From: Verrucomicrobiota bacterium
Lineage (GTDB): Bacteria > Verrucomicrobiota > Verrucomicrobiia > CAIQCK01
Length of the DNA stretch: 64,000 nt
Assembly (NCBI GenBank): GCA_016219905.1
Contig: JACRKA010000351.1
Coordinates: forward strand, 2,622 to 66,621
Direction of reading: 5' to 3'
This document shows positions 20,826-40,848 of this stretch, one piece after another (position 1 is the stretch's first letter; every line of letters starts with the position of its first letter). The notes beneath the pieces are model-generated. The model was given only the letters and a program-made list of their open reading frames with translations. It had not been told where the DNA came from and ran no database searches. The translations under genes were made by a program, and so were the position numbers.

Positions 20826-20828
20826 GCT

Positions 20829-21619: not shown

Positions 21620-21626
21620 TTTACAG

Positions 21627-21783: not shown

Positions 21784-22283
21784 CACTTCTTCTGCCACTT
21801 CTTGATCGGGTCGGGCATCGTGCCGCCCAACTCCAACAGCTTCTCCTTGTTGAACATCATGTCTTTCCGCGAGAGGCCGGTCACCGAATACGGCCCGCGC
21901 AGGAAGATCGCCTGTTCAGGGCAGACCTCCTCGCAGTAACCGCAGAAAATGCAGCGGATCATGTCAATCTCGAACTCGTCCGGCGTCTTCTCGACCTTCT
22001 TATACTTCGCGTTGTCCGGGTAAGCCATCGGCTTGATCCGGATCGCCCGCGGCGGGCACACAAACTCGCAAAGCTGGCACGCGACGCACTTCACGCGGCC
22101 GTCCTCATCCTTCACCAGCACCGGCTGGCCGCGGTAGCCCGGCGGAATCTCCGGCTTCTGCTCCGGATAGCGCAGCGTCACCTTCTTCCGGAACAGATGC
22201 GAGAACGTCAGCATCATGCCGGAGATGATCGCCGGCAGATAGAGCCGTTCCCAGATCGTCAGCGGTTTGCGCTCGATCCTCAT
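21783..22283 (-). CDS. nuoI: NADH-quinone oxidoreductase subunit I (2x[4Fe-4S] ferredoxin).
   Basis: Two CxxCxxCxxxCP motifs (CVACQLCEFVCP; CIFCGYCEEVCP). ATG at 22283 overlaps the nuoH stop (ATGA). Confidence 0.92.
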   Translation of the reverse strand: MRIERKPLTIWERLYLPAIISGMMLTFSHLFRKKVTLRYPEQKPEIPPGYRGQPVLVKDEDGRVKCVACQLCEFVCPPRAIRIKPMAYPDNAKYKKVEKTPDEFEIDMIRCIFCGYCEEVCPEQAIFLRGPYSVTGLSRKDMMFNKEKLLELGGTMPDPIKKWQKK

Positions 22284-23344: not shown

Positions 23345-23353
23345 GGGTTAAAA

Positions 23354-23507
23354 GCCCGAAATCCGAAACTCGAAATCCGAAATAAATCCGAAATCCGAAG
23401 GCGGCAACGGCCAGACCGGCACCAACCGCTCTGGCGTGGACGTTTCGAGATTCGTTGTCTTCGTCATTCGAGTTTGTTTCGACTTTCGAGTTTCGACTTT
23501 CGGATTT
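23354..23507. repeat. Structured intercistronic palindromic repeat, copy 2 (nuoG-nuoH gap).
   Basis: Same architecture and heptad composition as copy 1 (cccgaaatccgaaactcgaaatccgaaataaatccgaaatccgaa ... cattcgagtttgtttcgactttcgagtttcgactttcggattt). It fills the 161-bp gap. Confidence 0.85.
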
Positions 23508-25149
23508 ACCCCAACTGCACGCCGCCGTCGCCGATCTTCTCCAGCGACAGGCCGGCAAACGGCTTCACGTTGGCCGCCATGTCCGCGAACAACGCCACGA
23601 TGTCCGCAAACCGGTCTGGTTGACCGGTCTCGCGCAACAGGTCGCGAAAGATTTCCCAATCGCTGCGCTCTTCGCCGCCGAGCGACACGGCCGGCCAGAC
23701 ACGCTGGACGCGCCCCTTGGCATTGGTGAACGTGCCGCGTTTCTCGGCGTAAGTCACGCCCGGCAGCACGAAATGCGCGGCCTTCGTCGTCTCCGTCGGC
23801 CTGAAATCCACGACCAGCAGCAGCGACAGCTTCGCCAACAGATCGGCGCCGATGCCGCGCCGGGTCACATCCTCCTGATGGACGACGAGCGTCTTGATCT
23901 TGCCAGCCTTGATGCCGTCGGCGATCGCCGCGAACTTCGACCCCATCGGCGCGGCTGCCACGTTGAAAATCTTCGCGCCGGCGCTGTTCGGGTTGCGGTC
24001 GGCGTTGACGAGGAAGCTGTCACCGTCCCACGTCCGCGGCACGCAATCGCTGACGCTGCCTTTCGCCAGCATCGAGAACAGGTAAAGCTCCTCGTTGGTC
24101 GCCCGCGCGCTGCCGACGAACGCCACGCTCGTGCGGTCGGCCAGCGCGGCCTTCAGCTTCGGCGCGAGTTGCTTCAGCGCATCGGCGTAGCTCGTCTCCT
24201 TGCCGCTGACGAACGCCTTCTTCAGCCGGCTCGCTGCGTTGATGTGTTTGTAGTTGTGACGGCCTGCGTCGCACATCCAGCATTCGTTGACGGCGTCGTT
24301 TTCGCGCGGCGTCTGGCGATAGACGACGTTCTCGCGCGACCAGATGACGATGTTGCAGCCCGTGGCGCAGCTCGTGCAGATGCTCTTGGTCTCCTTCAGG
24401 AACCAGACGCGCATCTTGAACCGGAAATCCTTGTCGGTGAGCGCGCCGACCGGGCAGAGGTCCACGGTGTTGAGGGAGTAATTGCCGGCGAGCTTCTTGC
24501 CAGGCCAGCAGGTCAACGTCGTGTGGCTGCCCCGGTTGGTGAAGCCGAGACAGTCGTCCTTTGCCACATCGCGCATGAACCGGATGCAGCGGCTGCACAG
24601 GATGCACCGCTCGTCGTCGAGCATCACGCGCAGGCCGAGGTCCACCTGTTTCGGCTTGTGAACCTTCTCCTCGCGGAACCGGGACGCGTCCTTGCCGAAC
24701 TCGACGGAATATTCCTGCAGCTTGCACTCGCCAGCCTGGTCGCAGATCGGGCAGTCGAGCGGATGGTTGATGAGGAAGAACTCCATCACCGAGTTCTGCG
24801 CCTGTTGCACAGCGGGCGAGTTGGTGACGACGACCATGCCCTCGGTGACCTGCGTGTTGCAGCCGATGGACAGGCGAGGCGCCATCGTGACCTTCGTCGT
24901 GCCGTCGGGGTTGAGGACAGGCTTGCCGTCGGGGCCGCGCATCGGGCCGCCCACCTCGACGAGGCACATGCGGCAGTTGCCGGAGATGGCGAGCTTCTTG
25001 TGATAGCAATAGTGCGGCACGAACACCCCGACCCTCTGGCCCGCTTCGATGAGGTTGGTGCCCTTCGGCACCTGCACCTTGATGCCGTTGATGGTCGCGT
25101 TGACCATCTCGGCGGCTGGCGTTGGAGTTGTCGGGTTGTCCGCCATCAT
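23506..25149 (-). CDS. nuoG: NADH-quinone oxidoreductase subunit G (75 kDa Fe-S subunit, short form).
   Basis: N-terminal 2Fe-2S and His-ligated 4Fe-4S motifs (CYHKKLAISGNCRMC; HPLDCPICDQAGEC). 547 aa. Confidence 0.92.
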   Translation of the reverse strand: MMADNPTTPTPAAEMVNATINGIKVQVPKGTNLIEAGQRVGVFVPHYCYHKKLAISGNCRMCLVEVGGPMRGPDGKPVLNPDGTTKVTMAPRLSIGCNTQVTEGMVVVTNSPAVQQAQNSVMEFFLINHPLDCPICDQAGECKLQEYSVEFGKDASRFREEKVHKPKQVDLGLRVMLDDERCILCSRCIRFMRDVAKDDCLGFTNRGSHTTLTCWPGKKLAGNYSLNTVDLCPVGALTDKDFRFKMRVWFLKETKSICTSCATGCNIVIWSRENVVYRQTPRENDAVNECWMCDAGRHNYKHINAASRLKKAFVSGKETSYADALKQLAPKLKAALADRTSVAFVGSARATNEELYLFSMLAKGSVSDCVPRTWDGDSFLVNADRNPNSAGAKIFNVAAAPMGSKFAAIADGIKAGKIKTLVVHQEDVTRRGIGADLLAKLSLLLVVDFRPTETTKAAHFVLPGVTYAEKRGTFTNAKGRVQRVWPAVSLGGEERSDWEIFRDLLRETGQPDRFADIVALFADMAANVKPFAGLSLEKIGDGGVQLG

Positions 25150-26453
25150 TTCTCCAGTTTCACGAAGTCATCCCGGAACTTCTCGACGAAGCTCTGGACC
25201 GGCCAGGCGCACGCTTCGCCGAACGGGCAGATGGTGCGGCCAGGGATGTTGTCGGCGATGCCCTTGAGGTAATCGGTGTCGCCCTTCTGGCCGTGGCCAT
25301 GGGTCATGCGATGGAGGGCCTTGGCCATCCAAAGCGAGCCTTCGCGGCAGGGCGTGCACTGGCCGCAACTCTCGTGCGCATAAAACTCGGCGATGTTGGC
25401 GATGGCCTTTGGCATGTCGGTCGTCTCGTCCAGGACGATGACGCCGCCGGAGCCGGCCATTGTGCCGACCAGCGGCAGCGAATCGAAATCCACCGGCACG
25501 TCCTGCCAGCCCCAGTCATACGCCGTGCCGTCGCGCTTCTTGCCCTTGAACCGCTCGTCGCAACGAATGATCTTCGCGCTGCTGCCGCCGGGGATGATGG
25601 CCTTGACCTTGCGCCCGCCGGGGACGCCGCCGCAGAGGCCGTTGATCAACTCGCCATAGGTGATCTTGCCCAGTTCAACCTCATAGCAGCCGGGCTTGTT
25701 GACGTGGCCGCTGACGCCGACCATGCGCGTGCCGGTGTTGCCAGGCGTGCCGATGTGGGCGAACTCCGCCCCGCCCATCTGGATGATCACCGGGATGTTG
25801 GCGAGCGTCTCGACGTTGTTGACGATGGTCGGGCACATCCAGAGGCCGAGCACGGCGGGGAAATACGGCGGCTTGAACCGCGGATAGCCGCGCTTGCCTT
25901 CGAGCGACTCGATGAGTCCGGTCTCCTCGCCGCAGATGTAGGCGCCCGCGCCGCGGTGGACGAAGATTTCCAGCGAGTAGGCCGAGCCAAGGATGTTCCT
26001 GCCGACGAAGTTTTTCGCGCGCGCCTCTTCGATGGCCGCGAGCAAAATCTTGTAGCCTTGGGCGAACTCGCCGCGGACGTAGATGTAGGCGGTGCGCACG
26101 TCGTTGGCGTAGCTGGCGCAGACGATGCCCTCGATGAGCGCGTGCGGGTCGCGGTGGATGATCTGCCGGTCCTTGAACGTGCCCGGCTCGGCCTCGTCGG
26201 CGTTGCAGATGAGGTAGATCGGCTTGCTGCTCTTGCGGTCCACGAGCGACCACTTCAGGCCGGTGCCGAACCCCGCGCCGCCACGACCGCGCAAACCGGA
26301 GCGCGTGACCTCGGCGCGGATGTCCTCCGGCTTCATCGCGAGCGCTTTTTTCAGCGCCGCATAGCCGCCGGCGGCCAGGTAGTCCTCGATGCGGACCGAG
26401 TAACCCGGCTGGGTCATTCGCGCGGTCAGGATTTTTCGTTCAGCGGCGGCCAT
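25146..26453 (-). CDS. nuoF: NADH-quinone oxidoreductase subunit F (51 kDa; FMN, NADH and 4Fe-4S binding).
   Basis: GxGxxG-type FMN/NADH region (GRGGAGFGTGLKW); C-terminal Cys cluster ESCGQCTPCREG. Confidence 0.93.
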   Translation of the reverse strand: MAAAERKILTARMTQPGYSVRIEDYLAAGGYAALKKALAMKPEDIRAEVTRSGLRGRGGAGFGTGLKWSLVDRKSSKPIYLICNADEAEPGTFKDRQIIHRDPHALIEGIVCASYANDVRTAYIYVRGEFAQGYKILLAAIEEARAKNFVGRNILGSAYSLEIFVHRGAGAYICGEETGLIESLEGKRGYPRFKPPYFPAVLGLWMCPTIVNNVETLANIPVIIQMGGAEFAHIGTPGNTGTRMVGVSGHVNKPGCYEVELGKITYGELINGLCGGVPGGRKVKAIIPGGSSAKIIRCDERFKGKKRDGTAYDWGWQDVPVDFDSLPLVGTMAGSGGVIVLDETTDMPKAIANIAEFYAHESCGQCTPCREGSLWMAKALHRMTHGHGQKGDTDYLKGIADNIPGRTICPFGEACAWPVQSFVEKFRDDFVKLEK

Positions 26454-26473
26454 GGTTGGTTGCGGTTGCTAAA

Positions 26474-27652
26474 TCAGTGCTTGTGCTCGTGATCAGGTTC
26501 ATGCTGCGGCACGCCGTCCGCAGGGATTGAAGCAAGCGGCAACGATGATGAATGCTCGATCAGCGAAATCACGAACCGGTCCGCCTCGGTCGGGGACGGG
26601 TTTTCCGCCGGGTCGGGCACTGACAGGAGTTTGCCCTCGACTTCGCGCCAGGCCCAGTTGATGAACTCGCCGGCGGCGCAAGTGATCCGGATGATGTAAC
26701 GGGCGCCGGCGATCTCGGCCACGACGTTCCAGACGTTGGCGAGCGTGCCGTAAGCTTCGAGAGCTGCCTTGTGCCCGTCCTCCAACAGGAGACAAACGAG
26801 ATTGCTCGCGTCGCCAAGTGCGTATGTGTCGTCGGCCTTGCCGGCGAGTTCCGCGGGCAACACCGCATCGCGCCCCATCTCTTTAAGGCAACGCTGCCGC
26901 GCGTAAGCCGCCGGCATCTTCAGCCGCTCGATCGCCATGCAAGCCTCGAACACCAGCACCGCCTCCTCAAAATCATCTACACGCCACATCGAGACGCCGA
27001 GGTTGTAGGCCTCGATGGGCGGCAGTTCCAACTCTCTGGGCAGTTGCCCCACGGCGACCCTCGCTTCAGCGGACGGCTTCTGCTGAACCGCAGGCGCTGG
27101 CGCAGCGCGTTTGCGGGCCGGGTGCTGGCGCGTGTCGGGCTTCTGGAGCGTCGCCTTTTGCACGGGAGTCTTCGGCGGAGGCGCAACTATTGCCAGAATC
27201 TCGTCGAGCTTCGCTGGCGTGACGTTTTCGTAGTGGTCGTCGTTGATGGTGACGCACGGCCCTTTGTCGCACGCCGCGAGGCACTCGACCCAGGCGAGGC
27301 TGAACCGCCTGTCCCTGGTGACCTCGTCCATGCCGATGCCGAGTTTCTGTTTCAACGCTTGGGCGAGCTTGTGGCTGCCAGCCAGTTCGCACGACAACGT
27401 GCGGCAGATCTTGATGTGATACTTGCCGACGCGTTTGCGCCGGAACATCGGGTAGAACGTCACGCACTCGGCGACGTGGATCGGCTGGCACTCCAGCTTC
27501 TTCGCCGTCCACTCGATCATCGGGTCGGAGATAAATCCGTAATGCTCCTGCATGGCGTGCAGCGCCATCAACATCGCGCTGCGCTTCTTGTCGGGCGGAT
27601 AGTGCGCCAGCAGCGCGTCCACGGCGGCGTTGAGTTCTGGAGGCGGTTGCAT
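26474..27652 (-). CDS. nuoE: NADH-quinone oxidoreductase subunit E (24 kDa 2Fe-2S) carrying a C-terminal extension of about 230 aa of unknown function.
   Basis: Start ATG at 27652, immediately after the nuoD stop. Thioredoxin-like NuoE core with Cys ligands (CRTLSC...CLAACDKGPC). It is followed by a roughly 230-aa non-NuoE region ending in a His-rich tail (HEPDHEHKH). Confidence 0.85.
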   Translation of the reverse strand: MQPPPELNAAVDALLAHYPPDKKRSAMLMALHAMQEHYGFISDPMIEWTAKKLECQPIHVAECVTFYPMFRRKRVGKYHIKICRTLSCELAGSHKLAQALKQKLGIGMDEVTRDRRFSLAWVECLAACDKGPCVTINDDHYENVTPAKLDEILAIVAPPPKTPVQKATLQKPDTRQHPARKRAAPAPAVQQKPSAEARVAVGQLPRELELPPIEAYNLGVSMWRVDDFEEAVLVFEACMAIERLKMPAAYARQRCLKEMGRDAVLPAELAGKADDTYALGDASNLVCLLLEDGHKAALEAYGTLANVWNVVAEIAGARYIIRITCAAGEFINWAWREVEGKLLSVPDPAENPSPTEADRFVISLIEHSSSLPLASIPADGVPQHEPDHEHKH

Positions 27653-27654
27653 GG

Positions 27655-28962
27655 TCAGCGGTCGCACTCCCCCATCACAAAGTCGAATGAACCAAGGATC
27701 GCCACCACATCGGCGATGAGATGGCCTTTGAGCAGGTGCGGCAACACGCTCAGGTTGCAAAAGCTCGGCCCGCGGATCTTCAACCGCCACGGCACGCCTC
27801 CGCCGCGGCTGACCACGTAGAAGCCCAGCTCGCCCTTCGCGTTCTCGGCGCTGAAGAACGCCTCGCCCGGCGGCACGTTCGGCCCCTCGGTGACCACCAT
27901 GAACTGGTGGATGAGTTCCTCCATCCGCGTCAGCACCTTTTCCTTCGGCGGCAGGATGGTCTTGAAATCCGGCGCGTTGACCGGCCCGCCGGGCAACTTG
28001 TCGCACGCCTGCTTGAGGATGCGCACCGATTGGCGCATCTCCTCCATGCGGACCAAGTAGCGGTCGTAGCAGTCGCCCATCGTGCCGACGGGCACGTCGA
28101 ACTCGAAGTCTTGGTAGCAGAGATACGGATGCGCTTTGCGGAGATCGTATTCGACGCCGCTGGCGCGCAGGTTCGGCCCCGTGACGCCATAGTCAATCGC
28201 CACCTCCGGCGCGAGCACGCCGACGTCGCGGTTGCGGTCCATAAAAATGCGGTTGCCCGTCAACAACCGGTCCACCTCGCCAAGCGTCTTCGGGAACGTG
28301 TCGAGGAAGTGGCGCAGCTCGGCGATCCAGCCTTCCGGAATGTCGCGCGCCACGCCGCCGATGCGCGTGTAGCTGTTGGTGAGGCGGGCGCCGGTCATTT
28401 TCTCCAGCAGCGTGTAGAGCCGTTCACGCTCGGTGAACGTCCAGAGGAATATCGTCAGCGCGCCCAGATCGAGTCCCATCGCGCCGATGCCCATCAGGTG
28501 GGACGCGATACGTGCGATCTCGCAGCAGATGGCGCGGATATACTGGCAGCGCGGCGGCACTACCAAACCCATGAGCTTCTCGACCGCGAGGACAAAGGCA
28601 ACGTTGTTGGCCGGCGATGCGAGGTAGTCGAGCCGGTCGGTGTAGGGCACGAACTGGTTGTAGGTGAAATTCTCGGCGATCTTCTCCTCGCCACGATGCA
28701 GGTAGCCGATCTCCGGCCGCGCGGCGGTGACGATCTCGCCGTCCAGCTCGAGCACCAACCGCAACACGCCGTGCGTGGACGGGTGCGACGGCCCCATGTT
28801 CAGGACCATCTTCTCGCACGGCAGTTCCGGCTCCGGCACGGGTGGCTGGGCCGCCGCAACCTGCGGGGCCGCGACACGCGCTGCCACGGCGCGCGCCACC
28901 GCCGCCCGCGTTGCGGGCGTCTTGACCTTCACTTGAGCGACTTTGGGTTGCGGTGTTGACAC
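27655..28962 (-). CDS. nuoD: NADH-quinone oxidoreductase subunit D (49 kDa), with an Ala/Val-rich N-terminal extension.
   Basis: Conserved MVLNMGPSHPSTHGVLRL core from about residue 52. The low-complexity N-terminus (AAVARAVAARVAAPQVAAAQPP) may or may not be translated. Confidence 0.9.
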   Translation of the reverse strand: MSTPQPKVAQVKVKTPATRAAVARAVAARVAAPQVAAAQPPVPEPELPCEKMVLNMGPSHPSTHGVLRLVLELDGEIVTAARPEIGYLHRGEEKIAENFTYNQFVPYTDRLDYLASPANNVAFVLAVEKLMGLVVPPRCQYIRAICCEIARIASHLMGIGAMGLDLGALTIFLWTFTERERLYTLLEKMTGARLTNSYTRIGGVARDIPEGWIAELRHFLDTFPKTLGEVDRLLTGNRIFMDRNRDVGVLAPEVAIDYGVTGPNLRASGVEYDLRKAHPYLCYQDFEFDVPVGTMGDCYDRYLVRMEEMRQSVRILKQACDKLPGGPVNAPDFKTILPPKEKVLTRMEELIHQFMVVTEGPNVPPGEAFFSAENAKGELGFYVVSRGGGVPWRLKIRGPSFCNLSVLPHLLKGHLIADVVAILGSFDFVMGECDR

Positions 28963-28988
28963 GGAATTGAAAACGAAAGCTCGTTTCG

Positions 28989-29621
28989 CTACGGCCCGCC
29001 CGTCTTGTCGCGCACGTCGTCGGGCAGCGCGTTGGTCCGTATGCGCGGCTCGCGTCCCGCGGCATGTTCGGCCGGCGTCGTCACAAACGGCCCGCCGTCC
29101 AGCGGCGCGGCCTGCGTGAACGCCACGCCCGGCACGTCGCTCGGCTTGCCTTCAAGCGGGAAATCCTTTCGCAGCGGATGGAACGGGTAACCCTCCCACA
29201 TCAGGATGCGGCGCAGGTCGGGATGGCCGGTGAAACGGATGCCGACCATGTCGTAAGCCTCGCGCTCGTGCCAGTCGGCCGTCCGCCAGACGCTGCTGAC
29301 GCTCGGCACGGTCGGGTCGCTCTCCGGCACGCCGACCTTAAGCCGCAGCAGGCCGCCGTTCTTCATCGAGTAGAGCAGGTAATCCACCTCGAACCGCGGC
29401 GCGGCGTCGTAGTTGTCCACGCCGCAGATGTCCACGAGATAATCGAATGCGCAGCCAGCATCCCCTTTGAGGAATGAGCAGATGACGGCGATGTTCTCGC
29501 GCGGCACGGTGATGGTGACCTCGTCGCGCCCGGTGACCTTGTCCGCAAACACAACGGGCGCGCCGATCTTCTCGCCGAATCGGTCGCGAACAGCCTTGGC
29601 AGCGTCGAGTGCGGTGGGCAT
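28989..29621 (-). CDS. nuoC: NADH-quinone oxidoreductase subunit C (30 kDa).
   Basis: NuoC family core (WHEREAYDMVGIRFTGHPDLRRIL). Confidence 0.92.
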   Translation of the reverse strand: MPTALDAAKAVRDRFGEKIGAPVVFADKVTGRDEVTITVPRENIAVICSFLKGDAGCAFDYLVDICGVDNYDAAPRFEVDYLLYSMKNGGLLRLKVGVPESDPTVPSVSSVWRTADWHEREAYDMVGIRFTGHPDLRRILMWEGYPFHPLRKDFPLEGKPSDVPGVAFTQAAPLDGGPFVTTPAEHAAGREPRIRTNALPDDVRDKTGGP

Positions 29622-29627
29622 GGGAGT

Positions 29628-30194
29628 TCAGGAGGCTTTCGGCAAATCCGCGGGCGCGCGTTTGAGGTTCTTGAGGCCCGGCTCGCGCTGGATCTTCTCC
29701 TGCAACTTGATCAACGCATCGAGCAGCGCTTCGGGCCGCGGCGGGCAGCCGCCGACATAGACGTCCACGGGCAGAAGCCGGTCAATGCCTTGGAGCACGG
29801 CGTAGCTGCGATACATGCCGCCGGTGGACGCGCACGCGCCCATCGCGATGCACCATTTCGGGTCGGGCATCTGGTCCCAGATGCGTTTGACCGCGAGCGC
29901 CATCTTGTAGGTGACCGTGCCGGAGACGATCATCACGTCGGACTGACGCGGCGAGAACCGCATCACCTCCGCGCCGAACCGCGCAATGTCGAAACGCGAG
30001 GCGCCCGTGGCCATCAACTCGATCGCGCAGCAGGCGAGGCCCATCGGCATCGGCCAGAGGGAGTTTTTGCGGATCCAGTCAATCGCGGCATCCAGCCGCG
30101 TGATGATGGCGTCGCTCTCAAGCTGCCCGGTGTAACCAATCGTTGTGGTTGTCTGCGTCATGCACCCCTGCGTTCGGTCTTGCTGCACCTTCAC
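29628..30194 (-). CDS. nuoB: NADH-quinone oxidoreductase subunit B (20 kDa, N2 cluster).
   Basis: Conserved [16 protein letters not shown] and GGCPP cysteine motifs. No nuoA is present upstream. Confidence 0.93.
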
Positions 30195-30356
30195 GACGGC
30201 AAACAGCGTGCGAAAAATGCGCCGCCAACGCTAGAAACAATGCCCCAGCATTGCAAGTGAAAGTTGTGATTTCTTTCACAAGCCGGGCGCAAGGATCGGC
30301 GTGCCCCGCGGGCGACTGGCGAGGGCCGGCACGCAGCAGAACGGGCGCGGGACCGG

Positions 30357-31541
30357 CTAGAGGTCGGCTTTCTCGACAAGCTCCTTCAGTCGCGCGAGAA
30401 ACCGCGCGCCTGCAGTCCCCTCGATGATGCGGCGGTCGCACCCCAATGTCAGCCGCACCATGTGCCGCGTCTTCATGACGCTGTTGACGACGCGCGGCTC
30501 CTGTTGGATCGCGCCGACCGCCAGAACGGCGGAAAGCCCCGGCATGATCAGCCCGTTGAAGCTCTCGACGCCAAACATGCCCAGATTGGTCAGGCTGAAA
30601 TTCGCATCCGTGAGGTCATGCTGCGTCAGCGCTCCATCGCGCGCCCGCTGGGCCAGCGTGGCCACATTCAAGACCAACTGATCCAGCGGCCGGTTCTTCA
30701 CATCGTGCAGCACCGGCCACATCATGCCCCGCGGCGTGTCCACCGCCACGGCCATGTTCACTTGCGCGTTCTCGCGCCAACTCCGCCCCAGAAAAGTCCC
30801 GAAGAGCCGCGGGTGCTCCATCAACGCCTCGGCGGCAAGTTTCGCCATGATGGCCGTGATCGAAGGCGCGTCTTTGCGCGCGGCGCGCCATGCCACCAGC
30901 GCCGTGGCGTCCACGGCCATGGTGATGTTGTATTGCGGGATGTCTCGGTGCGCCTGCGCCATGCGCTGCACCCAGACCTGTTCCGCCGGCGTCAACATCA
31001 TCTGCCGCGTCGGCGCGGCGGGTGCCACCGCCTCTGCCGGCTCCGGTTTCGGCGGAAGCTCCTCTGTCTTCTTGCGCGCAATCGCCGCCTCCACATCGCC
31101 CACAATAATCCGCCCGCCGGGACCGCTGCCCCGTAATCCGCTGATGTCCAGGCCGCTCGCCTCGGCCAGCCAGCGGGCGCGCGCGCTGACCTTCGCCGCA
31201 GCCGCCGACAGCCCTGCTTCGGCGGTGGCAGCGGATTCCTCCGCCGGCTCCTCGTCCTCTGTCTCCGCGGCTTCTGTCGCTGGGGCTGCCTGAGGCTCAG
31301 GCGACTCGTCCTCGATGATCCCCAGCACAACGCCGGGTTTCGCCTCCGTGCCGGTTTCCAGAAAAATGTCCGCCAGCATCCCCTCAAACTCGCTCTCGAT
31401 CTCAAGGACCGTCGTGCGGGTCTCGACGGCCAGCACCACTTCGCCCTTCCGGATGGAGTCACCGATCTCTTTGCGCCAACGCCCGACCGTGGCGCGCCCC
31501 TGAACAGGCGCGCTGGGCGGCAATGTGATCTCGTATCTCAT
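30357..31541 (-). CDS. Degenerate homologue of the 2-oxoacid dehydrogenase E2 (dihydrolipoamide acyltransferase). It has lipoyl-like, subunit-binding and catalytic-like domains but lacks the lipoyl lysine and the catalytic histidine.
   Basis: The lipoyl-domain motif reads VETRTTVLEIES in place of ETDKA (no Lys). The peripheral-subunit-binding domain is intact (ISGLRGSGPGGRIIVGDVEAA). The catalytic motif reads GCDRRIIEGTAGARFL in place of DHRxxDG (His to Arg, Asp to Glu). Confidence 0.75.
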   Translation of the reverse strand: MRYEITLPPSAPVQGRATVGRWRKEIGDSIRKGEVVLAVETRTTVLEIESEFEGMLADIFLETGTEAKPGVVLGIIEDESPEPQAAPATEAAETEDEEPAEESAATAEAGLSAAAAKVSARARWLAEASGLDISGLRGSGPGGRIIVGDVEAAIARKKTEELPPKPEPAEAVAPAAPTRQMMLTPAEQVWVQRMAQAHRDIPQYNITMAVDATALVAWRAARKDAPSITAIMAKLAAEALMEHPRLFGTFLGRSWRENAQVNMAVAVDTPRGMMWPVLHDVKNRPLDQLVLNVATLAQRARDGALTQHDLTDANFSLTNLGMFGVESFNGLIMPGLSAVLAVGAIQQEPRVVNSVMKTRHMVRLTLGCDRRIIEGTAGARFLARLKELVEKADL

Positions 31542-31569: not shown

Positions 31570-32016
31570 TCATTCCGACACGCGTTTGATGATCGCCAGC
31601 CATAATGAATCCACCGACCGCACCAGCTTGATCATCTGATTCAAATCAATCGGTTTGCTCAAGTAAGCATCGGCGTTGAGATCGTAAGCTTGCAGGATGT
31701 CCTCTTCCGCCTTCGACCCGGTCAGCACCACCACCGGGATGCGCTTCAGCACGGGGTCTTTCCTCATCTCGATCAACACCTCGCGCCCGTCCTTGCGGGG
31801 CAGGTTCAAATCAAGCATCACCAAGTCCGGCTCCCGCGCTGCCGCATACTTGCCCTCGCGCCGCAGGCAGGCCATCGCCTCGATTCCATCACCCACCACG
31901 GTGAGGCTGTTGTGCAGTTTGGCCTCGCGGAACATCTCTTGCACCAGCCGCGCGTCGCCCGCGCTGTCCTCAACCAATAGAATCTCTATCGGCTTGATCG
32001 CTTTCTTGTCACTCAT
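31570..32016 (-). CDS. Single-domain response regulator receiver protein (CheY-like).
   Basis: Start taken at MSDKKAIKPIEILLVEDS. Phospho-acceptor context VMLDLNLP and conserved LTGSKAEED / K-P region. Confidence 0.8.
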   Translation of the reverse strand: MSDKKAIKPIEILLVEDSAGDARLVQEMFREAKLHNSLTVVGDGIEAMACLRREGKYAAAREPDLVMLDLNLPRKDGREVLIEMRKDPVLKRIPVVVLTGSKAEEDILQAYDLNADAYLSKPIDLNQMIKLVRSVDSLWLAIIKRVSE

Positions 32017-32160
32017 TTGAGCCGCCAGATGATGTTGCACGCACCTGCCGCATTTCCAAATCTTCAATTCATCCTACCGTAATTCAGCCTAAAGACAACT
32101 CTGCAGTTGCGCCGGGTGACCTGCGCCAACCACGCCGCGCACGACTGACGCCGCCACCCT

Positions 32161-33066
32161 CTACTGTGACCCGAACAAACTTACGCCCGCCGGGCTGCGC
32201 CCGCCGCTGGTGTCCACGATCACCTTCCGCGCTTGTGCCAGGCATTGCTCCAGCGTCTCCAGATAAAGCCGGTGCCGCGTCGCCTCCGGCGCGTCCTTGT
32301 ATTTCGCGAACACCTCCCGCACCCGCTGCGCCGCGCCGCTGGCCAGCTCGACCTTCTCCTGCTTGTAGGCCTCCGCGAGCCGCTCCGCGCGATACGCCTC
32401 GCCCTGCGCCCTCGGGATCAAGTCGTTGGCATAACCCTGCGCCTCCTCCACCAGCCGGAAACGGTCGGCCTTCGCGCTGACCACATCGTTGAACGCAGCC
32501 GCCACCTCCGGCGGCGGATACACGCGCTGGATGTTTGCCGAGTTGATGCTGATGCCGCAGCGATACGCATCGGCCAGCTTCGCCAGCCGCTCCTGCACAC
32601 GCTGCTGGATCTCCACGCGCTTCTCGTAGAGCACCTCCTCCACCGGCATCCGCGCCACCACCTCCGTCAGCGCGTTCTTCGCCGCCGCCTTCAGCAAATC
32701 CTCCGGCGCGACGCTGCCGAACAGATAATCATGCGCCGAGGCGATGTTGTATTGCACCACCAGCTCGATGTTCACGATGTTCTTGTCGCCGCTGAGTAAT
32801 TCCACCTCTGCCGGCAACGGCGCCCAGCCCGTCACCTGCCCCGCCAATGCCACGCCCAGCCCCAGCCGTTTCGTCTCGCGCACCTTCAACGGCACCACCA
32901 CATCGCACGGCCACGGCAGCTTCACATGGATGCCGGGCGGCACGCGGTCATCCACGATCCGGCCGAACCGCCCCAGCACGCCCTGCTCGTCGGTCTTGAT
33001 CATATAGACCGACGTGGCCAGCCAGCCGATGACGGCCAGCGCGAATATCCAGCGAACTATTCTCAC
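32161..33066 (-). CDS. SPFH/band-7 domain protein (HflK/HflC family).
   Basis: N-terminal TM anchor followed by an SPFH domain and a coiled-coil tail. Overlaps the upstream SPFH gene by 4 nt. Confidence 0.8.
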   Translation of the reverse strand: MRIVRWIFALAVIGWLATSVYMIKTDEQGVLGRFGRIVDDRVPPGIHVKLPWPCDVVVPLKVRETKRLGLGVALAGQVTGWAPLPAEVELLSGDKNIVNIELVVQYNIASAHDYLFGSVAPEDLLKAAAKNALTEVVARMPVEEVLYEKRVEIQQRVQERLAKLADAYRCGISINSANIQRVYPPPEVAAAFNDVVSAKADRFRLVEEAQGYANDLIPRAQGEAYRAERLAEAYKQEKVELASGAAQRVREVFAKYKDAPEATRHRLYLETLEQCLAQARKVIVDTSGGRSPAGVSLFGSQ

Positions 33067-33953
33067 TTGTTTGCCTTCAACGCCTGCGATCCTTCCGTCA
33101 GCAGCTTCAGGAAATCACTGTCGCTGCCCAGCACCAGCGTCGTGTTCTCCTTCAGCGTCACCCGATACGCATCCAGCGTCCGCAGAAACTTGTAGAACGA
33201 CGGGTCCAGCGCGATGGCCGAGTTGTAAATCTCGATCGCCCTCGCGTCGCCCTCGCCCTTGAGCGTCTCGGCCTTGCGGTTCGCCTCGGCCAGGATCGTC
33301 GTCTTCTGCTTGTCCGCCTCGGCCCGGATCTTCATGCCCTCCTCCTGGCCCTCGGCGCGGAACTGCTTCGCCTCGCGCTGCCGTTCCGCCCGCATCCGCT
33401 CGAACACCGCGTCGCGGTTCTGCGTCGGGAAACCGAGCCGCTTGATCCGCACGTCCACCACCTCGATACCGTAGCGCCCCTTCGCCGTCTCGCTGCACTT
33501 CCCGCGGATCTCCTCCGAAAGCGGGTCGAGCTTCATCTCCTCCGGCTTTATCGAAAGCAACGCCGCCAGCGGCGTCACGCCCAGCTTTGAGCTAAGCTCG
33601 CTCCAGAGCACGTCCCGCAGCCGCATCTCCGCGCCGAGCGGGTCGCGCACCGCCAGCAGGAACTTCTGCGGCTCGGCGATCTTCCACGCCACGAAGCTCT
33701 GCACGACGATGTTCTTCTTGTCCTGCGTCAGGAACTCCGACGGTGTTGCGTCGTAAAGCCGCACGCGCCGGTCGAAGCGCAGCACGCCTTCCCACGGCCA
33801 CTTCAGCCCCAGTCCCGCCGCGTCGAGCGGGCGCACCGGCTTGCCAAACAGCGTCACGATCACGCTCTCGTTCTCGCGCACGGTGAAGAAGCACGTCCAG
33901 ACCGCGGCGACCGCCACGGCCAGCACAAGCAAGGTTTTCGATACAGGTTTCAT
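33063..33953 (-). CDS. SPFH/band-7 domain protein (HflC-like).
   Basis: N-terminal TM anchor, ESVIVTLFGKPV SPFH start, and a coiled-coil C-terminus (ERMRAERQREAKQFRAEGQEEG). Confidence 0.8.
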   Translation of the reverse strand: MKPVSKTLLVLAVAVAAVWTCFFTVRENESVIVTLFGKPVRPLDAAGLGLKWPWEGVLRFDRRVRLYDATPSEFLTQDKKNIVVQSFVAWKIAEPQKFLLAVRDPLGAEMRLRDVLWSELSSKLGVTPLAALLSIKPEEMKLDPLSEEIRGKCSETAKGRYGIEVVDVRIKRLGFPTQNRDAVFERMRAERQREAKQFRAEGQEEGMKIRAEADKQKTTILAEANRKAETLKGEGDARAIEIYNSAIALDPSFYKFLRTLDAYRVTLKENTTLVLGSDSDFLKLLTEGSQALKANK

Positions 33954-33954
33954 G

Positions 33955-36900
33955 TCACTCCTCGGAAATCGTCGGCCGCTGCGCCGTCTGCGCCGGCGCA
34001 GACGGTGCGCTTTGACTCAGCAGCGCCTTCAACCGCTCGTTCAGCAAATAAATCTGGTGCGGCGCCTTTGCGCGGTTGTCCACGACGTAAAGCTGCTGCC
34101 GCGGCAGCAACTCTTCCATCATCTCCAGGTAAAACCGTTCCGCCTGCGCCTCACGCTGTGGGCCGGCCGCCTTGGCCGTCGCTGCGAACCGCGCCGCGCG
34201 GCCATTGCTATCCGCGATTTTCGCGTCCCGTGCCGCCGTCGCCGCCGTCACCGTGTTCGTTGCCGCTCCGCGCGCCAGAGGCACCTGCTCATTGCGGTAG
34301 CCCTCCGCTTCGTTGATGACGCGGCTCTTTTCCTCAATGGCGCTCGCCACGTCGCGATACGCGTCCACCAGCTCGATCGGCGGATGCACGTCCTGCAACC
34401 GCACGGCCTGCACCTCGATCCCTGCCGCGCACGCATCGAGCCGCCGTTGGATGAACTCTCGCACATGCTGCTCGACGAAGGGCCGGCCCGTCGTGAGCAA
34501 TCGCTCCGCTGCCGCGCGTCCCGCCGCCTCGCGCAGCGCCGCCTCGGCCAGCGCCTTCACCAGCGCCGCCGGCTCCGTCGCCGCGAACAGGTAAGCCACC
34601 GGGTCCTTCACCACGAAATGCGTCGTCAGTGTCACCGCCACGAAGTTCTCGTCGCCCGCCACCACCATCGCCTCCTCCGGCACGAACTGGAACCCACCCT
34701 TGTGCTCATAGTTCCATTCGTAGGCCGTCGGTTCAATAAACACATTCGTCTGCGCGGCGGCCGGCTGCGTCCATCGTTTCCAGAACGGCTGCGCCGCGAC
34801 AGCGCGCTCCACCGCGCGCAACCCGACCTGCACACGCTGCACGCGCTCCGGCGTCACGCGGAGCACTTCGTCGCACGGCCACGGCCAGACGTAACTCAGC
34901 CCCGGTTCCAGCACGGCAACCTTTCGGCCAAAATGCAACCGCACGCCGACCTCGTCCGGCTGGATCGCCGTCAAGCCGGTCACAAACCAACTCGCCGTTG
35001 CCGCCACGAGCGCCACGCCCAGCGCTTTCGCCGGTTGGTTGCGACAGAACCCCGCCACCGCATTGCCCTGCCGCCGACATCCCGCCGTCTGCTGCTGCCA
35101 CCACGCCGCGCCGCGCCGCGCCGTCTCGCCGCTCGACAAGAGTCGCAGCGAGTTGCACACCACCAGCAGCGAGGAAATCTGGTGCGTGACCGCCGCGCCG
35201 ATCGGCCCGATCACGCCTTGCGACGCCGCGAACACCGCCGCGCCATTGAAGCCGACGGCGAACCACCAGATGTTGTGCCGGATCGTGCGGATGACCTGCC
35301 GGCAAAACTCGATCGCGAAAGGGATTCTCCTCAAGTCGTCCTGCATCAGCACGACATCAGCCGCCTCGATGGTGATGTCCGTGCCCAACCCGTGCATCGC
35401 CACGCCCGTGTCCGCCGCCGCGAGCGCCGGCGCGTCGTTGATCCCGTCGCCGCACATCAACGTCGCCAGCCCGCGCTGCTGGAGCGCGCGGATGCGCGCG
35501 ACCTTGTCCGCCGGCAGCAAGCCCGCGCCCACCTCGCCGATGCCCACGCGCTCGCCAATGGCGCGCCCGACGCGTTCGTTGTCACCCGTCAGCAGGACAA
35601 TCTGCTCGATGCCACACCCACGCAGCAACGCCACCGTCTCGCGCGCTTCCTCGCGTGGGGGGTCGCTAAGGGCGACCGCGCCGATGACGGTAGCCGCCGA
35701 CGTATGGAGGCGGTCCGCTTTCTTACCAACAGAACTGTTGTCCACCTCCTCACGTCGGTGGCTACCGCGCGCCACCAGCACCACCGTGTGGCCCGCTTCC
35801 TCCAGCCGCTGGATGCGCGCCTCGGCTTCCGCGGAAATCGCCGCGCCCCGCTGCTGCATCAGCTGGCGGTTGCCCACCGCAATGAATGTGGGAGGGGCCT
35901 TAGCGCCCCGACCCGGCGCGTCCCACGCCCCAGGAACGGACTTGGAAGTCCGTTCTACTTCGGAGGCTGTGCTCGAAGTCGTAGAACGGACTTCCAAGTC
36001 CGTTCCATCGTCACGACGAACCTCCGCCACCGTGCCCATGCCCGGCACGGCTTCGAACTTATCCGCCCGCTTCAGCGCAATGCCCCGCCGCTGCGCCTCC
36101 GCCACGATCACCTGCGCCAGCGGATGCTCCGAGTGCGACTCCGCCGTCGCCGCGAGCGCGAGCAACGCGCCCTCATCGCCGCCAAACGCGACCGTCTCGA
36201 CGACGCGCGGTTTGCCGACGGTCAGCGTGCCGGTCTTGTCGAACACAACCGCGCGCGTGTTCGCGAGCTTCTCCAGATAGATGCCGCCCTTGACCAACAC
36301 GCCGGCCCGCGCGAGCCGGCCGATGCCCGCCGCGATGCCCGTCGGCGTCGCCAACACCAGCGCGCACGGACACGCCACGATCAGCACGCTGACGGCCCGG
36401 ATGAGCCGCGCGCTGAAGTCCCCGCCGGAAAAGAAAAACGTCGCAAGGCCCAGCGCGATGACCGTCGGCACGAACCATACCGCCCACTTGTCGGCGCGCT
36501 GATGGACACCCGCCTTTTTCTCCTCCGCCTCCTCGACGAGGTGAATGATCTTGCCGAGCGTGGAATCCTCACCGACGCCAGTGACGCGCACGTCGAGCGA
36601 GCCGACCTGGTTGATGGTGCCTGCGAACACCTTGTCTCCGCCGGCCTTGTTCACCGGGATGCTCTCGCCAGTGATCGCGCTCTGGTCCACCGCCGATGCG
36701 CCCGCGACGACCTCGCCGTCCACCGCAATGCGCTCGCCCGGCCGAACCATAACCACGTCGCCAGCACGGATGTTGTCCAGCGCCACCTCGACGATGTCGC
36801 CGCCGCGCCGGACGCTGGCGGTGCGCGGCACCAGCTTGATGAGCTTCTCGATCGCGCCGCGCGTGCGGTCCACGGCGAGTTCTTCGAGATAGCCGCCGAC

Positions 36901-37176
36901 CAGCATGATAAAGATGACCTCGGCGGCGGCGAAATACTGGCCGATGTAGAGCGCGGCGCACGCGGCGATGGCGATGGCCAAGTCGCTGGAAATCTCGCGG
37001 TGGAGCAGCCCCCATGCGGCCTCGCCGAAGATCTTGTAGCCACCGATCAGCGTGATCAGCACCGCCACATCAAACGGCCCGACATCCTTGATCCAGCCAA
37101 ACCAGTAAAGCGCCAGCAGCCCGCCGACGGCGGCGATGAACAGTGGCTTGCACAGTTTCTTGAGCGACGCTGGCAT
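33955..37176 (-). CDS. Heavy-metal-translocating P1B-type ATPase (CPC type) fused at its C-terminus to an HflK-like SPFH domain. It carries in-frame palindromic insertions.
   Basis: P-type motifs: TGES, CPCAL (metal-binding TM6), DKTGTLT, GDGINDAPAL. The P-type portion ends at NSLRLL. After that the frame continues into a TM segment plus an HflK-like SPFH domain (VRLHFGRKVAVLEPGLSYVWPWP...) of about 370 aa. Total 1073 aa. Confidence 0.8.
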   Translation of the reverse strand: MPASLKKLCKPLFIAAVGGLLALYWFGWIKDVGPFDVAVLITLIGGYKIFGEAAWGLLHREISSDLAIAIAACAALYIGQYFAAAEVIFIMLVGGYLEELAVDRTRGAIEKLIKLVPRTASVRRGGDIVEVALDNIRAGDVVMVRPGERIAVDGEVVAGASAVDQSAITGESIPVNKAGGDKVFAGTINQVGSLDVRVTGVGEDSTLGKIIHLVEEAEEKKAGVHQRADKWAVWFVPTVIALGLATFFFSGGDFSARLIRAVSVLIVACPCALVLATPTGIAAGIGRLARAGVLVKGGIYLEKLANTRAVVFDKTGTLTVGKPRVVETVAFGGDEGALLALAATAESHSEHPLAQVIVAEAQRRGIALKRADKFEAVPGMGTVAEVRRDDGTDLEVRSTTSSTASEVERTSKSVPGAWDAPGRGAKAPPTFIAVGNRQLMQQRGAAISAEAEARIQRLEEAGHTVVLVARGSHRREEVDNSSVGKKADRLHTSAATVIGAVALSDPPREEARETVALLRGCGIEQIVLLTGDNERVGRAIGERVGIGEVGAGLLPADKVARIRALQQRGLATLMCGDGINDAPALAAADTGVAMHGLGTDITIEAADVVLMQDDLRRIPFAIEFCRQVIRTIRHNIWWFAVGFNGAAVFAASQGVIGPIGAAVTHQISSLLVVCNSLRLLSSGETARRGAAWWQQQTAGCRRQGNAVAGFCRNQPAKALGVALVAATASWFVTGLTAIQPDEVGVRLHFGRKVAVLEPGLSYVWPWPCDEVLRVTPERVQRVQVGLRAVERAVAAQPFWKRWTQPAAAQTNVFIEPTAYEWNYEHKGGFQFVPEEAMVVAGDENFVAVTLTTHFVVKDPVAYLFAATEPAALVKALAEAALREAAGRAAAERLLTTGRPFVEQHVREFIQRRLDACAAGIEVQAVRLQDVHPPIELVDAYRDVASAIEEKSRVINEAEGYRNEQVPLARGAATNTVTAATAARDAKIADSNGRAARFAATAKAAGPQREAQAERFYLEMMEELLPRQQLYVVDNRAKAPHQIYLLNERLKALLSQSAPSAPAQTAQRPTISEE
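35689..35766. repeat. In-frame palindromic element (family A) inside the P-type ATPase gene.
   Basis: 78 nt (26 codons). Arms ggtagccgccgacgtatggaggcgg / ccacctcctcacgtcggtggctacc. Encodes SHRREEVDNSSVGKKADRLHTSAATV, placed by eye into the HTVVLVARG...IGAVAL loop of the ATPase; P1B-ATPases are not expected to carry such a segment there. Confidence 0.75.
35893..36007. repeat. In-frame palindromic element (family B) inside the P-type ATPase gene.
   Basis: About 115 nt. It contains two mutually reverse-complementary 22-nt near-palindromes (gaacggacttggaagtccgttc / gaacggacttccaagtccgttc) flanking tacttcgg..cgaagtcgta. Encodes TDLEVRSTTSSTASEVERTSKSVPGAWDAPGRGAKAPP, sitting between VRRDDG and TFIAVGN, which I equate from memory with the VDGRTVLVGN region of other CopA-type pumps. 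Confidence 0.7.
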
Positions 37177-38364: not shown

Positions 38365-40800
38365 TCATTCGAGCTTCGGCCCCTCGATCCGCTCGCCGCG
38401 CTGCTGGCGGGCCTGGTCGGCGACATCGAACGTGCCGTAGAACAGCGCGTTCGCATCCATCCACGTCACCAGCCGCTCCATATCCTCCGCGGTGAGCGCC
38501 ACGTCGTGGTGACCTTTCATCAGCATCTTCATCAACGGGCTGCCGCGCGCGCCGAAAAAGTCCGGCTGCGACATCGGCTCGCTGTTCACGACGCGGAAGT
38601 CGCCCGGCTTGCCACCCCACGCCGAGAACGACACGCGTCCGGCCAGCGCGTTGTAGGAGGCGCTGTAGCGGCCTTGCGGTTCGCCCGTCAGCGCAAGCTT
38701 GCCCTCCGGCTGCGGCCCGCTGTGGCAGGAGACGCAATGTTTGTTGAGCACGGGCTGGACGAGGATGGGATAACTCAACGGCTTCGAGCCGTCGGGGCCG
38801 GGCGCAATCGTCGAAGGCGGCCGTGACATGGCGATGGCGACGCGGCGTGAAGATGGAGTGTTGGCACGGTGCTCGTGGCAGCCGACACAAGAAACGCGCT
38901 CGCCCGGCTGGAGATAGGTGACGCTGCGCATCGTTTGCACCGCCTGGCCGCGCTCGTCGAGCGCCTGGAACGCGAGCGCGATATTGGCCGGCGCGCGGAA
39001 ATACGCCGAGCCATCCGCCTCGACAGGCACCGTGCCGAGCACTTGCTTGCCGGGCGAGGCATTCGCAACACCAACCGTCGGCGCGTTGATGTGCGGTGTC
39101 GTCTTGGGCAGCACCTGGATGACGCGCAGACGCGTGATGCGAGCATCCGGCAGCCGCGGCCATGAATCGTGAACATTTTCAACAAAGAAGGTGCCGTCGC
39201 GCGATGCGGCATCCTTGATGCGCGATTCGGATTCTTGTGCAAGCAACGGCAACGCCGGCGGCGTCGGACGCGCCCGCAGCGGCATCGGCCAGAGGCTGCA
39301 GATTTCCGAGTCGCGATAAAGCAGTTCCTTGTTGCCGAACGCATCCACGAGGTAGAGGCCGAACATGTTCGCCGGATTGGCGCTCGGCTCGCCGATCAGC
39401 GGGTCGAAACTGTAGGCGGCCAGAAAATACTTCTCCGACAACGGCCACGGCGTGCGATAGCAGTGGCCCGGCCACCGCGCCGCCTCCGGCGGAACAACTG
39501 GCGGGTTCTTCGGGCTGCCCGGCGCGCGCCAGAACGCCGGTTTCGCCGTGCCGTGCGACACGGGCTCCTCGCTCTCGGGAAACAGCGCGTCCGGCGTCAG
39601 CCGCGTGATTGGTTCCAGACCGTCCACCCCGCGCGTCACATCAAGCAGAATGATCGAGCCGGCGGTCATCGCATGGTGCGCCGCAGCGGTGGCCATCACG
39701 CGGCTCGACGCCGGCACGGCGCGGGCTTCCCACACGCCGACCGGGTTCAACGTGTTGTTGCCGTAGAACGCACGCACATCCGTGCCGTCCGGCCGCACCG
39801 TCCAGAGTTGCTGGTAATGCACTGCGTTGCGGTCCACGTAATCCCAACGCGTGTAGATGACACGGCCATCGTTGAGGACCGACGGGTCCCATTCGTGCGT
39901 CTCGTGAAACGAGACCGGATGCGGGTCGGAGCCGTCGCCGTTCGCGACAGCCAGCGTGTAGGTCGCGCACGGCCCGCGCCCGCAGCGATGGAACCCGCCG
40001 CGCCGCGTCGAGATGAAAACAATGCGGCCATCGGGCAAACAGCGTGACGCAAAATCGTCGAACGGCCCGTCTGTGAGCTGGCGCAGCCGCGAACCGTCTG
40101 CCGCCATCTCGTAGAGATGGTAATACCGGTCCAGACACGCCTCGCGATCCTTCGGCGCGGTCGGGGCGTTACAGTAGGCGAACAGGATGCGTTTGCCGTC
40201 GTAGGACACCTCCGGGAACTGGAAACTGCCGGGCGGCAGCGCATCCGGCGCAAGCTGGCGGCACCGCATCGTCCTGCCCGGCTCGTCGAGCGCGAACACC
40301 CCGCCGCCCGGCCGCGCGCAACTGCCGTAGTATTGCGTGAGCTGGTGGCTGAACATGCTCGGCACCTGCTTCACGAAAACCAGCGGCCCCGTTTTCGCGA
40401 GCGGATTGGCAAACACGATCTCGCGCCGCAACTCATGCGCCCGCCGCCAGAGGCTTTCCAAAGCAGGAGAATCCGCCATCGTAGGCGCCGACGTAAGGAG
40501 GCGAACGTCATGTGTTGAGCCGGAACGTTTCGCCTCCTCACGTCGGCGCCTACCGAACTCCCCGCGCAGCTTCTCCCATTGCCGCTGCAAATCTCCCAAC
40601 TCCACGCCCGCCGCCCCCAGATCGCTAATCAGCGCATCACCACGCTTGAAGAGCTTGGCGACCGCGTCCACGTAGGTGCCGGGATTACGCGCCGTGCCGA
40701 TGCCATCCTGTTTGCGCCAGTCGGCTTCAATCATCGCGCGCTCGTCCGCCCCAAGCACGCTCGTGACTGCCATGAAGAATGACAATGCAAATCGCCGCAT
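38365..40800 (-). CDS. Exported protein with a TolB-like beta-propeller region and two C-terminal CxxCH (putative c-type haem) motifs. It carries an in-frame palindromic insertion.
   Basis: Signal peptide MRRFALSFFMAVTSVLGA. Repeated DG.(R/I).F.S propeller-like units. CVGCHEH and CVSCHSG motifs near the C-terminus. Confidence 0.65.
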   Translation of the reverse strand: MRRFALSFFMAVTSVLGADERAMIEADWRKQDGIGTARNPGTYVDAVAKLFKRGDALISDLGAAGVELGDLQRQWEKLRGEFGRRRREEAKRSGSTHDVRLLTSAPTMADSPALESLWRRAHELRREIVFANPLAKTGPLVFVKQVPSMFSHQLTQYYGSCARPGGGVFALDEPGRTMRCRQLAPDALPPGSFQFPEVSYDGKRILFAYCNAPTAPKDREACLDRYYHLYEMAADGSRLRQLTDGPFDDFASRCLPDGRIVFISTRRGGFHRCGRGPCATYTLAVANGDGSDPHPVSFHETHEWDPSVLNDGRVIYTRWDYVDRNAVHYQQLWTVRPDGTDVRAFYGNNTLNPVGVWEARAVPASSRVMATAAAHHAMTAGSIILLDVTRGVDGLEPITRLTPDALFPESEEPVSHGTAKPAFWRAPGSPKNPPVVPPEAARWPGHCYRTPWPLSEKYFLAAYSFDPLIGEPSANPANMFGLYLVDAFGNKELLYRDSEICSLWPMPLRARPTPPALPLLAQESESRIKDAASRDGTFFVENVHDSWPRLPDARITRLRVIQVLPKTTPHINAPTVGVANASPGKQVLGTVPVEADGSAYFRAPANIALAFQALDERGQAVQTMRSVTYLQPGERVSCVGCHEHRANTPSSRRVAIAMSRPPSTIAPGPDGSKPLSYPILVQPVLNKHCVSCHSGPQPEGKLALTGEPQGRYSASYNALAGRVSFSAWGGKPGDFRVVNSEPMSQPDFFGARGSPLMKMLMKGHHDVALTAEDMERLVTWMDANALFYGTFDVADQARQQRGERIEGPKLE
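40481..40553. repeat. In-frame palindromic element (family A), copy 2, inside the exported-protein gene.
   Basis: Arms gtaggcgccgacgtaaggaggcgaacg / cgtttcgcctcctcacgtcggcgcctac share the core CCGACGT..GGAGGCG / CGCCTCCTCACGTCGG with the copy in the ATPase. Encodes about RRRREEAKRSGSTHDVRLLTSAPT. Confidence 0.75.
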
Positions 40801-40848
40801 GACGCCCCGGATACTACCCTGCCGCTCCCCAGATGTTGAGCTTTCTCT

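Follow-up and report, generated by a model that had tools for sequence, protein, structure and literature searches.

Loss of both the lipoyl-attachment lysine and the catalytic histidine in a conserved family of E2-like proteins from uncultured Verrucomicrobiota

In a 64,000-nucleotide stretch of the Verrucomicrobiota contig JACRKA010000351.1 (hereafter the window), we identified an intact gene for a homologue of E2, the dihydrolipoamide acyltransferase whose cores organise all 2-oxoacid dehydrogenase complexes. The encoded protein keeps the E2 fold and all three E2 domains, yet it lacks both the lysine that would carry the lipoyl group and the histidine of the acyltransferase center, and this double loss is a trait of the whole family to which it belongs rather than the one-off decay of a single gene. 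By sequence, the family constitutes a new, small and lineage-restricted group of predicted doubly inactivated E2 paralogues in uncultured Verrucomicrobiota, the E2 fold itself being known. The gene and its principal features, in window coordinates, are as follows.

30357..31541, minus strand: gene for the predicted E2-like pseudoenzyme (intact open reading frame (ORF) of 394 aa; three-domain Pfam match)
31308..31541, minus strand: lipoyl-like domain (aa 1-78), a beta-barrel without the attachment lysine (Pfam; AlphaFold2 (AF2) strands with predicted local distance difference test (pLDDT) values of 75-88)
31410..31424, minus strand: ETRTT in place of the ETDKA lipoylation hairpin, lysine replaced by Thr43 (direct translation and alignments)
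31062..31193, minus strand: peripheral-subunit-binding domain (PSBD; aa 117-160), KVSARARWLAEASGLDISGLRGSGPGGRIIVGDVE... (Pfam E3_binding; AF2; conservation; translation)
30366..31010, minus strand: CAT-fold acyltransferase-like domain (aa 178-392) with a remodelled active center (Pfam; Foldseek; clade-fixed substitutions)
30417..30437, minus strand: DRRIIEG in place of DHRxxDG, histidine replaced by Arg370 and aspartate by Glu374 (direct translation and alignments)

An earlier note on this DNA had proposed, from the letters alone, that an otherwise complete E2 had lost both of its catalytic essentials, and the alignments bear this out. When the protein was aligned by phmmer with mammalian PDC-E2 (8x03, 188.7 bits), one of its best solved relatives, no gap was present at either motif: 'vetrttvle' pairs with 'vetdkatvg' and 'cdrriieg' with 'cdhrvvdg', placing Thr43 at the lipoyl lysine, Arg370 at the catalytic His620 and Glu374 at Asp624, with the catalytic serine conservatively replaced by Thr318. 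Because both motifs align without gaps and the hairpin of the lipoyl-like domain contains no lysine at all, an indel offset that merely masks the lysine or the histidine, the outcome that the note had named as capable of overturning its claim, is ruled out. The protein retains Thr318, the Asp369-x-Arg371 frame, Gly375 and the NLGMFG loop. Eight further positions that are nearly invariant among E2s carry clade-fixed changes (S197A, H203Q, N229T, D230A, G264A, T314N, P335G and P392A), which together with the motif aspartate-to-glutamate change makes nine altered E2-conserved positions beyond the lysine and histidine. The C-terminus (...EKADL) is 3 residues shorter than those of true E2s (...EKPITMLL or ...ETPLLMLA).

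The lipoyl group of an E2 attaches only at the lysine on the hairpin tip, so the lipoyl-like domain cannot serve as a swinging arm. The acyl-transfer center of E2 consists of a histidine, a serine or threonine, and an aspartate or asparagine. A missing histidine alone is no proof of lost acyl transfer, since in Escherichia coli E2o a His375Ala change costs only 54-fold and His375Trp retains 60% of activity, the residue working through hydrogen bonding and not as a base (PMC5986005). That the protein is a 'dead' E2 we infer from the pattern as a whole, comprising the absent lysine, the remodelled center, the eight other changed sites and the lack of E1 or E3 neighbors.

A word-indexed protein search returned a clade of 28 proteins with 53-100% identity (E<=1e-107), beyond which matches fell abruptly to ordinary E2s with identities of at most 36% and E-values of about 1e-57. 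We counted motif residues in two alignments, one with 38 and the other with 120 sequences, in which 27 clade members cover each motif and 92 E2s serve as the outgroup. None of the 27 has the lipoyl lysine (threonine in 26, serine in one) and none has the catalytic histidine (arginine in 26, glutamine in one), whereas all 92 outgroup sequences have both; the motif aspartate is glutamate in every clade member. An exhaustive hmmsearch across 1.84 billion representatives at 50% identity found one full-length clade cluster (632 bits) and one fragment, with the next match at 299 bits and no intermediates between the clade and ordinary E2s. Among the matches listed, the nearest representatives outside the clade (n=147) kept the lysine in 147 cases and the histidine in 146, reading TDK or TEK at the lipoyl motif and DHR at the catalytic motif except for P0137 (DER). 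This last protein (671 aa) is otherwise an ordinary E2 with three lipoyl motifs and its lipoyl lysines kept, which is the pattern of E3BP, discussed below. A scan of genome contigs found only one clade member, that at locus L001 (loci are designated here by L numbers). Taxonomically, the clade does not extend beyond a narrow set of uncultured Verrucomicrobiota, and it forms one cluster at 50% identity; within it the ORF is full length and intact in 26 clusters, down to 53% identity, and 101 positions are invariant among 26 members. In full-text literature searches, we found no description of a bacterial E2 without both the lysine and the histidine.

The protein is identical to MBI5397312.1 (100% identity), whose record is titled 'MAG: 2-oxo acid dehydrogenase subunit E2 [Verrucomicrobia bacterium]', and its domains follow the order of an E2 subunit: lipoyl-like (Biotin_lipoyl, aa 13-76, 30.7 bits), PSBD (E3_binding, aa 122-151, 34.4 bits, cutoff 23.7) and acyltransferase (2-oxoacid_dh, aa 178-392, 179.9 bits). 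In NCBIfam, the best match was TIGR01349 with 209.4 bits (cutoff 445), each of the 14 matches scored below its own cutoff, and no curated family covered the clade. The AF2 model has a mean pLDDT of 81.6, with block means of 86-98 for the part of the catalytic domain that begins near residue 200, and with disordered linkers at residues 81-114 and 161-172. Foldseek matched it to most E2 catalytic cores with target template modelling scores (TM-scores) of 0.86-0.89 and root-mean-square deviations of 1.6-2.4 A; human E3BP (6h60) was matched as well. As the note had judged, the PSBD looks intact: it retains the GxGxxGRI motif (GSGPGGRI) and its arginines, is modelled as two helices with mean pLDDT of about 75-85, and contains many residues that are invariant in the clade.

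All three domains are under purifying selection. Ratios of nonsynonymous to synonymous substitution (dN/dS) were calculated by the Nei-Gojobori method, and for the window protein compared with L001 and L011, pairs whose ratios are rough because dS is close to 1, they were 0.09-0.15 for the lipoyl-like domain, 0.09-0.14 for the PSBD and 0.145 for the catalytic domain; the first linker, compared with L001, gave 0.41. Pairs from subclade B are unsaturated, and there the whole-gene values were 0.13 for L005 against L013 (dN 0.06, dS 0.48) and 0.09 for L005 against L007 (dN 0.071, dS 0.763). Overall, each domain had a dN/dS of 0.09-0.28. Purifying selection and the 101 invariant positions indicate that the gene is maintained as a protein and is not a decaying pseudogene, and because both hallmark changes are fixed in the clade under such selection, 'pseudoenzyme' describes it better than 'pseudogene'.

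The reading that we favor, and to which we give roughly even credence, is that of a conserved, lineage-specific and non-catalytic paralogue of E2p, the dihydrolipoamide acetyltransferase core subunit. It would serve a 2-oxoacid dehydrogenase complex whose genes lie elsewhere, either as one of its structural or adaptor subunits or by acting as a decoy or a regulator. Such a protein would have no lipoyl swinging arm, would presumably perform no canonical acyl transfer to coenzyme A, and would work by binding. Its C-terminal domain is predicted to oligomerise like E2 trimers, its preserved PSBD may tether a partner such as E3 or E1beta, and its lysine-less lipoyl-like domain could dock without reacting. 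In E2, the terminal 3-10 helix forms the 'knob' of trimer-trimer contacts (PMC10415282). Because this knob is 3 residues shorter in the E2-like protein, assembly is possibly altered, and the protein alone may not build a 24-mer or 60-mer.

By both sequence and fold, the closest known family is E2p of the alpha-proteobacterial and mitochondrial type (TIGR01349; PDC-E2 structures 8x03 and 6ct0), which shares the order of lipoyl domain, PSBD and CAT-fold core, gives the best sequence match (189 bits) and has a target TM-score of about 0.88. Unlike E2p, the Verrucomicrobiota protein has neither lipoyl lysine nor catalytic histidine, has glutamate for the motif aspartate, carries the eight further changes and the shorter C-terminus, scores far below equivalog cutoffs and has not turned up in any E1/E3 operon. 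Since it lacks both of the chemical features that define an E2 enzyme, it should not be classified as one.

The nearest functional analogy is E3BP (protein X; human PDHX, 6h60; fungal PX), which to our knowledge is the only well-known non-catalytic E2 paralogue, and is eukaryotic with its lipoyl group kept. Like the protein described here, it is derived from E2p and combines a lipoyl domain, a PSBD and an inner domain without the catalytic histidine, and it acts by binding rather than catalysis, as we propose by analogy for the Verrucomicrobiota family. The contrast that the note had drawn is correct: E3BP retains the lipoylated lysine, which the entire clade has lost. E3BP is moreover eukaryotic and of separate origin, while the clade is bacterial and discrete, and the query scores 188.7 bits against E2p but 106.2 bits against human E3BP (HMMER), so the resemblance is best regarded as convergent. 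On the favored reading, the family would have arisen independently in bacteria as a counterpart of E3BP that has degenerated further. Actinobacterial proteins offer partial comparisons. OdhA/KGD has an E2o domain that provides a precedent for an E2-type domain without a lipoyl arm of its own; OdhA, which is fused to E1o, has full succinyltransferase activity and uses lipoyl groups in trans (PMC10415282), whereas the protein considered here has neither the catalytic histidine nor an E1o fusion. In actinobacterial AceF, which is fully active and lipoylated, a 3-residue insertion at the C-terminus yields trimers and abolishes 'knob and socket' assembly (PMC10415282); the C-terminal change of AceF and OdhA is thus an insertion, in contrast to the shortened tail of the E2-like protein.

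Several observations weigh against a non-catalytic subunit of a dehydrogenase complex. No partner was found when E1 and E3 genes were sought beside the clade genes, and these together with a true E2 among the scanned ORFs of the 64-kb window; both the oligomeric state and the binding by the PSBD are predictions from sequence. The gene evolves faster than its neighbors, with 72% identity at L001 compared with 96% for nuoB, and 58% at L012 compared with 83-90% for two SPFH (Band7) proteins, so that the constraint on it is moderate. Since E. coli E2o tolerates His375Trp (PMC5986005), an arginine could in principle replace the histidine as hydrogen-bond donor, leaving residual or altered catalysis. 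Finally, the tight link in subclade A to a response regulator gene, described below, hints at a role outside dehydrogenase complexes.

If the non-catalytic reading is true, an E2 scaffold that has lost both chemical functions, with three domains still under selection, can be put to new use in binding or assembly alone, and the family offers a natural experiment on the roles left to the lipoyl domain and PSBD when chemistry is impossible. The clade genes now annotated as 'pyruvate dehydrogenase E2 component' would then be mis-annotated, and metabolic reconstructions of these Verrucomicrobia could wrongly credit them with the E2 of pyruvate dehydrogenase (PDH). The scope is limited, as the family is small and known from uncultured organisms only, and its adjacency to complex I genes is not meaningful. 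A wider claim, which we advance only tentatively, is that these proteins represent an undescribed bacterial class of doubly inactivated E2s that parallels E3BP, serving either as a regulatory or decoy adaptor of PDH or as a trimeric or cage scaffold under the control of a response regulator, with the threonine and the arginine and glutamate having acquired new selected roles.

Genes for E2 are usually, though not obligatorily, encoded with those for E1 and/or E3, and the nearest true E2 (P0032) lies inside an E1alpha-E1beta-E2-E3 operon. The E2-like gene is by comparison an orphan, away from E1 and E3 genes: neither adjoins it in any clade locus, and a scan of 40 ORFs in the window found no E1, E3, intact second E2 or lipoylation gene. 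Its immediate upstream neighbor is the following.

31570..32067, minus strand: gene for a single-domain response regulator (REC), directly upstream (Pfam Response_reg)

The regulator has a canonical acidic pocket with phospho-aspartate, threonine and lysine, and no histidine kinase gene is adjacent to it. We mapped neighbors by tblastn in a context sample of 24 loci. The REC gene lies directly upstream in all five subclade-A loci (the window, L001, L010, L011 and L014), where it is the only neighbor conserved throughout; it and the E2-like gene share 4 nt in L011, and the two are probably co-transcribed. Further upstream (32161-37176, minus strand), the window encodes a 1073-aa fusion of a P-type (E1-E2) ATPase with a C-terminal SPFH/Band7 domain, after which come two SPFH genes. 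The same three-gene cluster, at 71-90% amino acid identity, stands directly upstream of the E2-like gene in L012 (4926-9773) and L018 (4921-9762), while two SPFH genes precede REC in L010 and one, cut by the contig end, in L011. In the eleven subclade-B loci with a readable neighbor, neither REC nor SPFH is adjacent, and the upstream gene, where readable, encodes CN_hydrolase or AP_endonuc_2.

This context raises the alternative that the protein has been neofunctionalised for binding or cage formation outside 2-oxoacid dehydrogenase complexes, for example as an output partner of the REC protein, possibly together with the ATPase/SPFH membrane cluster. The invariable REC neighbor in subclade A with its 4-nt overlap in L011, the ATPase or SPFH genes upstream in the window, L010, L011, L012 and L018, and the complete lack of E1/E3 linkage all speak for such a role, as does the fixation of the threonine or serine at the lysine site, of Arg370 and of Glu374, a non-random pattern suggestive of new functions under selection. 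We nevertheless consider it unlikely, given that neither REC nor SPFH adjoins the gene in the readable subclade-B loci, that gene order common to related genomes may be inherited rather than functional, and that the PSBD is conserved, a domain whose only role known to us is binding E1 or E3.

Still less probable is that the protein remains an acyltransferase, using lipoyl domains in trans as OdhA does through a non-canonical Arg370/Glu374 center, perhaps with another acyl or acceptor specificity. The activity of the E. coli E2o His375 mutants (PMC5986005) and the survival here of Thr318, the Asp369-x-Arg371 frame and Gly375 are compatible with this, but the histidine is present in 92 of 92 outgroup E2s and in 146 of the 147 related E2s among the matches listed, eight other E2-conserved positions have changed, there is neither linkage nor fusion to any E1, and a lipoyl-like domain of no use to such an enzyme has been kept rather than lost. 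A functionless duplicate decaying into a pseudogene can be set aside almost entirely. Both hallmark residues are gone, the gene is an orphan and it evolves faster than neighboring genes, but the reading frame is unbroken over its whole length in 26 clusters with identities as low as 53%, every domain shows a dN/dS of 0.09-0.28, 101 positions are invariant, and the replacement residues are themselves fixed.

The note had also observed that the gene precedes nuoB on the same strand, in the place where nuoA would normally stand, and had suggested an association with complex I. The elements concerned are these.

29628..30194, minus strand: nuoB, given for context (Pfam Oxidored_q6; the longest ORF starts at GTG 30194, the probable true start being ATG 30161)
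30228..30282 (approximate), minus strand: AT-rich island with the inverted repeat GTGAAAG-N9-CTTTCAC, between the stop codon of the E2-like gene and nuoB

The spacing of 162 nt given by the note is correct for the longest nuoB ORF and becomes 195 nt if measured to ATG 30161, the start conserved with L001. The nuo operon of the window (nuoB-C-D-E-F-G-H-I-J-K-L-M-N, 15903-30194, minus strand) has no nuoA at its head. No nuoA was detected anywhere else in the 64-kb window either: Pfam identified the genes after nuoN as those for a glyoxalase, an Fe-S assembly protein resembling IscA (Fe-S_biosyn) and an exonuclease, and tblastn of the window with E. coli NuoA and Thermus thermophilus Nqo7 sequences, a weak test, gave only chance matches (E>=0.37). 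A complex I accessory subunit or NuoA substitute is conceivable from the arrangement in the window and L001, where nuoB begins 162-195 nt downstream of the E2-like gene, shares its strand and belongs to an operon without nuoA, and from one more distant contig with a nuoA-led operon 4.8 kb downstream of the E2-like gene. On that contig, however, four unrelated genes intervene and nuoA is present. Among the 15 loci with a readable downstream neighbor, nuoB follows in only two (the window and L001), and it is already replaced by a convergent GDSL lipase gene in L011 (78% identity) and by a DUF4962 gene in L010 (63% identity). Subclade B has a convergent 485-aa gene of unknown function together with GH57, or PFK, or EamA, and no theme recurs among the downstream neighbors (DUF4962, the 485-aa unknown, trypsin-like/PEP-CTERM, EamA and PFK).

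Comparison of the window with L001 shows the AT-rich island conserved amid diverged intergenic flanks, making it a probable nuo promoter or operator, and a promoter-like element between the genes argues for separate transcription of nuoB. A terminator scan of the same gap found only a 5-bp stem, no better than shuffled controls. The model is that of an ordinary soluble E2 fold, and Pfam returned E2 domains only, with no homology to NuoA (e.g., PF00507). Given the 2 of 15 loci and the intervening island, the adjacency to nuoB looks like an accidental local rearrangement in one lineage rather than a functional association, and a part in complex I is highly improbable. Thus, of the roles that the note had put forward, the pseudoenzyme stands, being fixed in the clade and under purifying selection, while the complex I-associated or NuoA-like role finds no support.

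Three other features of the window were recorded. NuoE (2Fe-2S thioredoxin-like; 26474-27654, minus strand) has a C-terminal extension of about 238 aa without a Pfam match, which is conserved in L001 (4182-5732). A large protein combining the middle domain of hydrazine synthase alpha (PF18582) with a beta-propeller repeat is encoded at 38365-40848 (minus strand), and a similar protein occurs near the E2-like gene in subclade-B contigs, such as L007 (5366-8446). A Suf Fe-S assembly cluster (47918-53113, minus strand), situated 17 kb upstream of the E2-like gene and sharing its strand, encodes an ABC ATPase, two proteins of the SufB/D type and a class-V aminotransferase resembling SufS.

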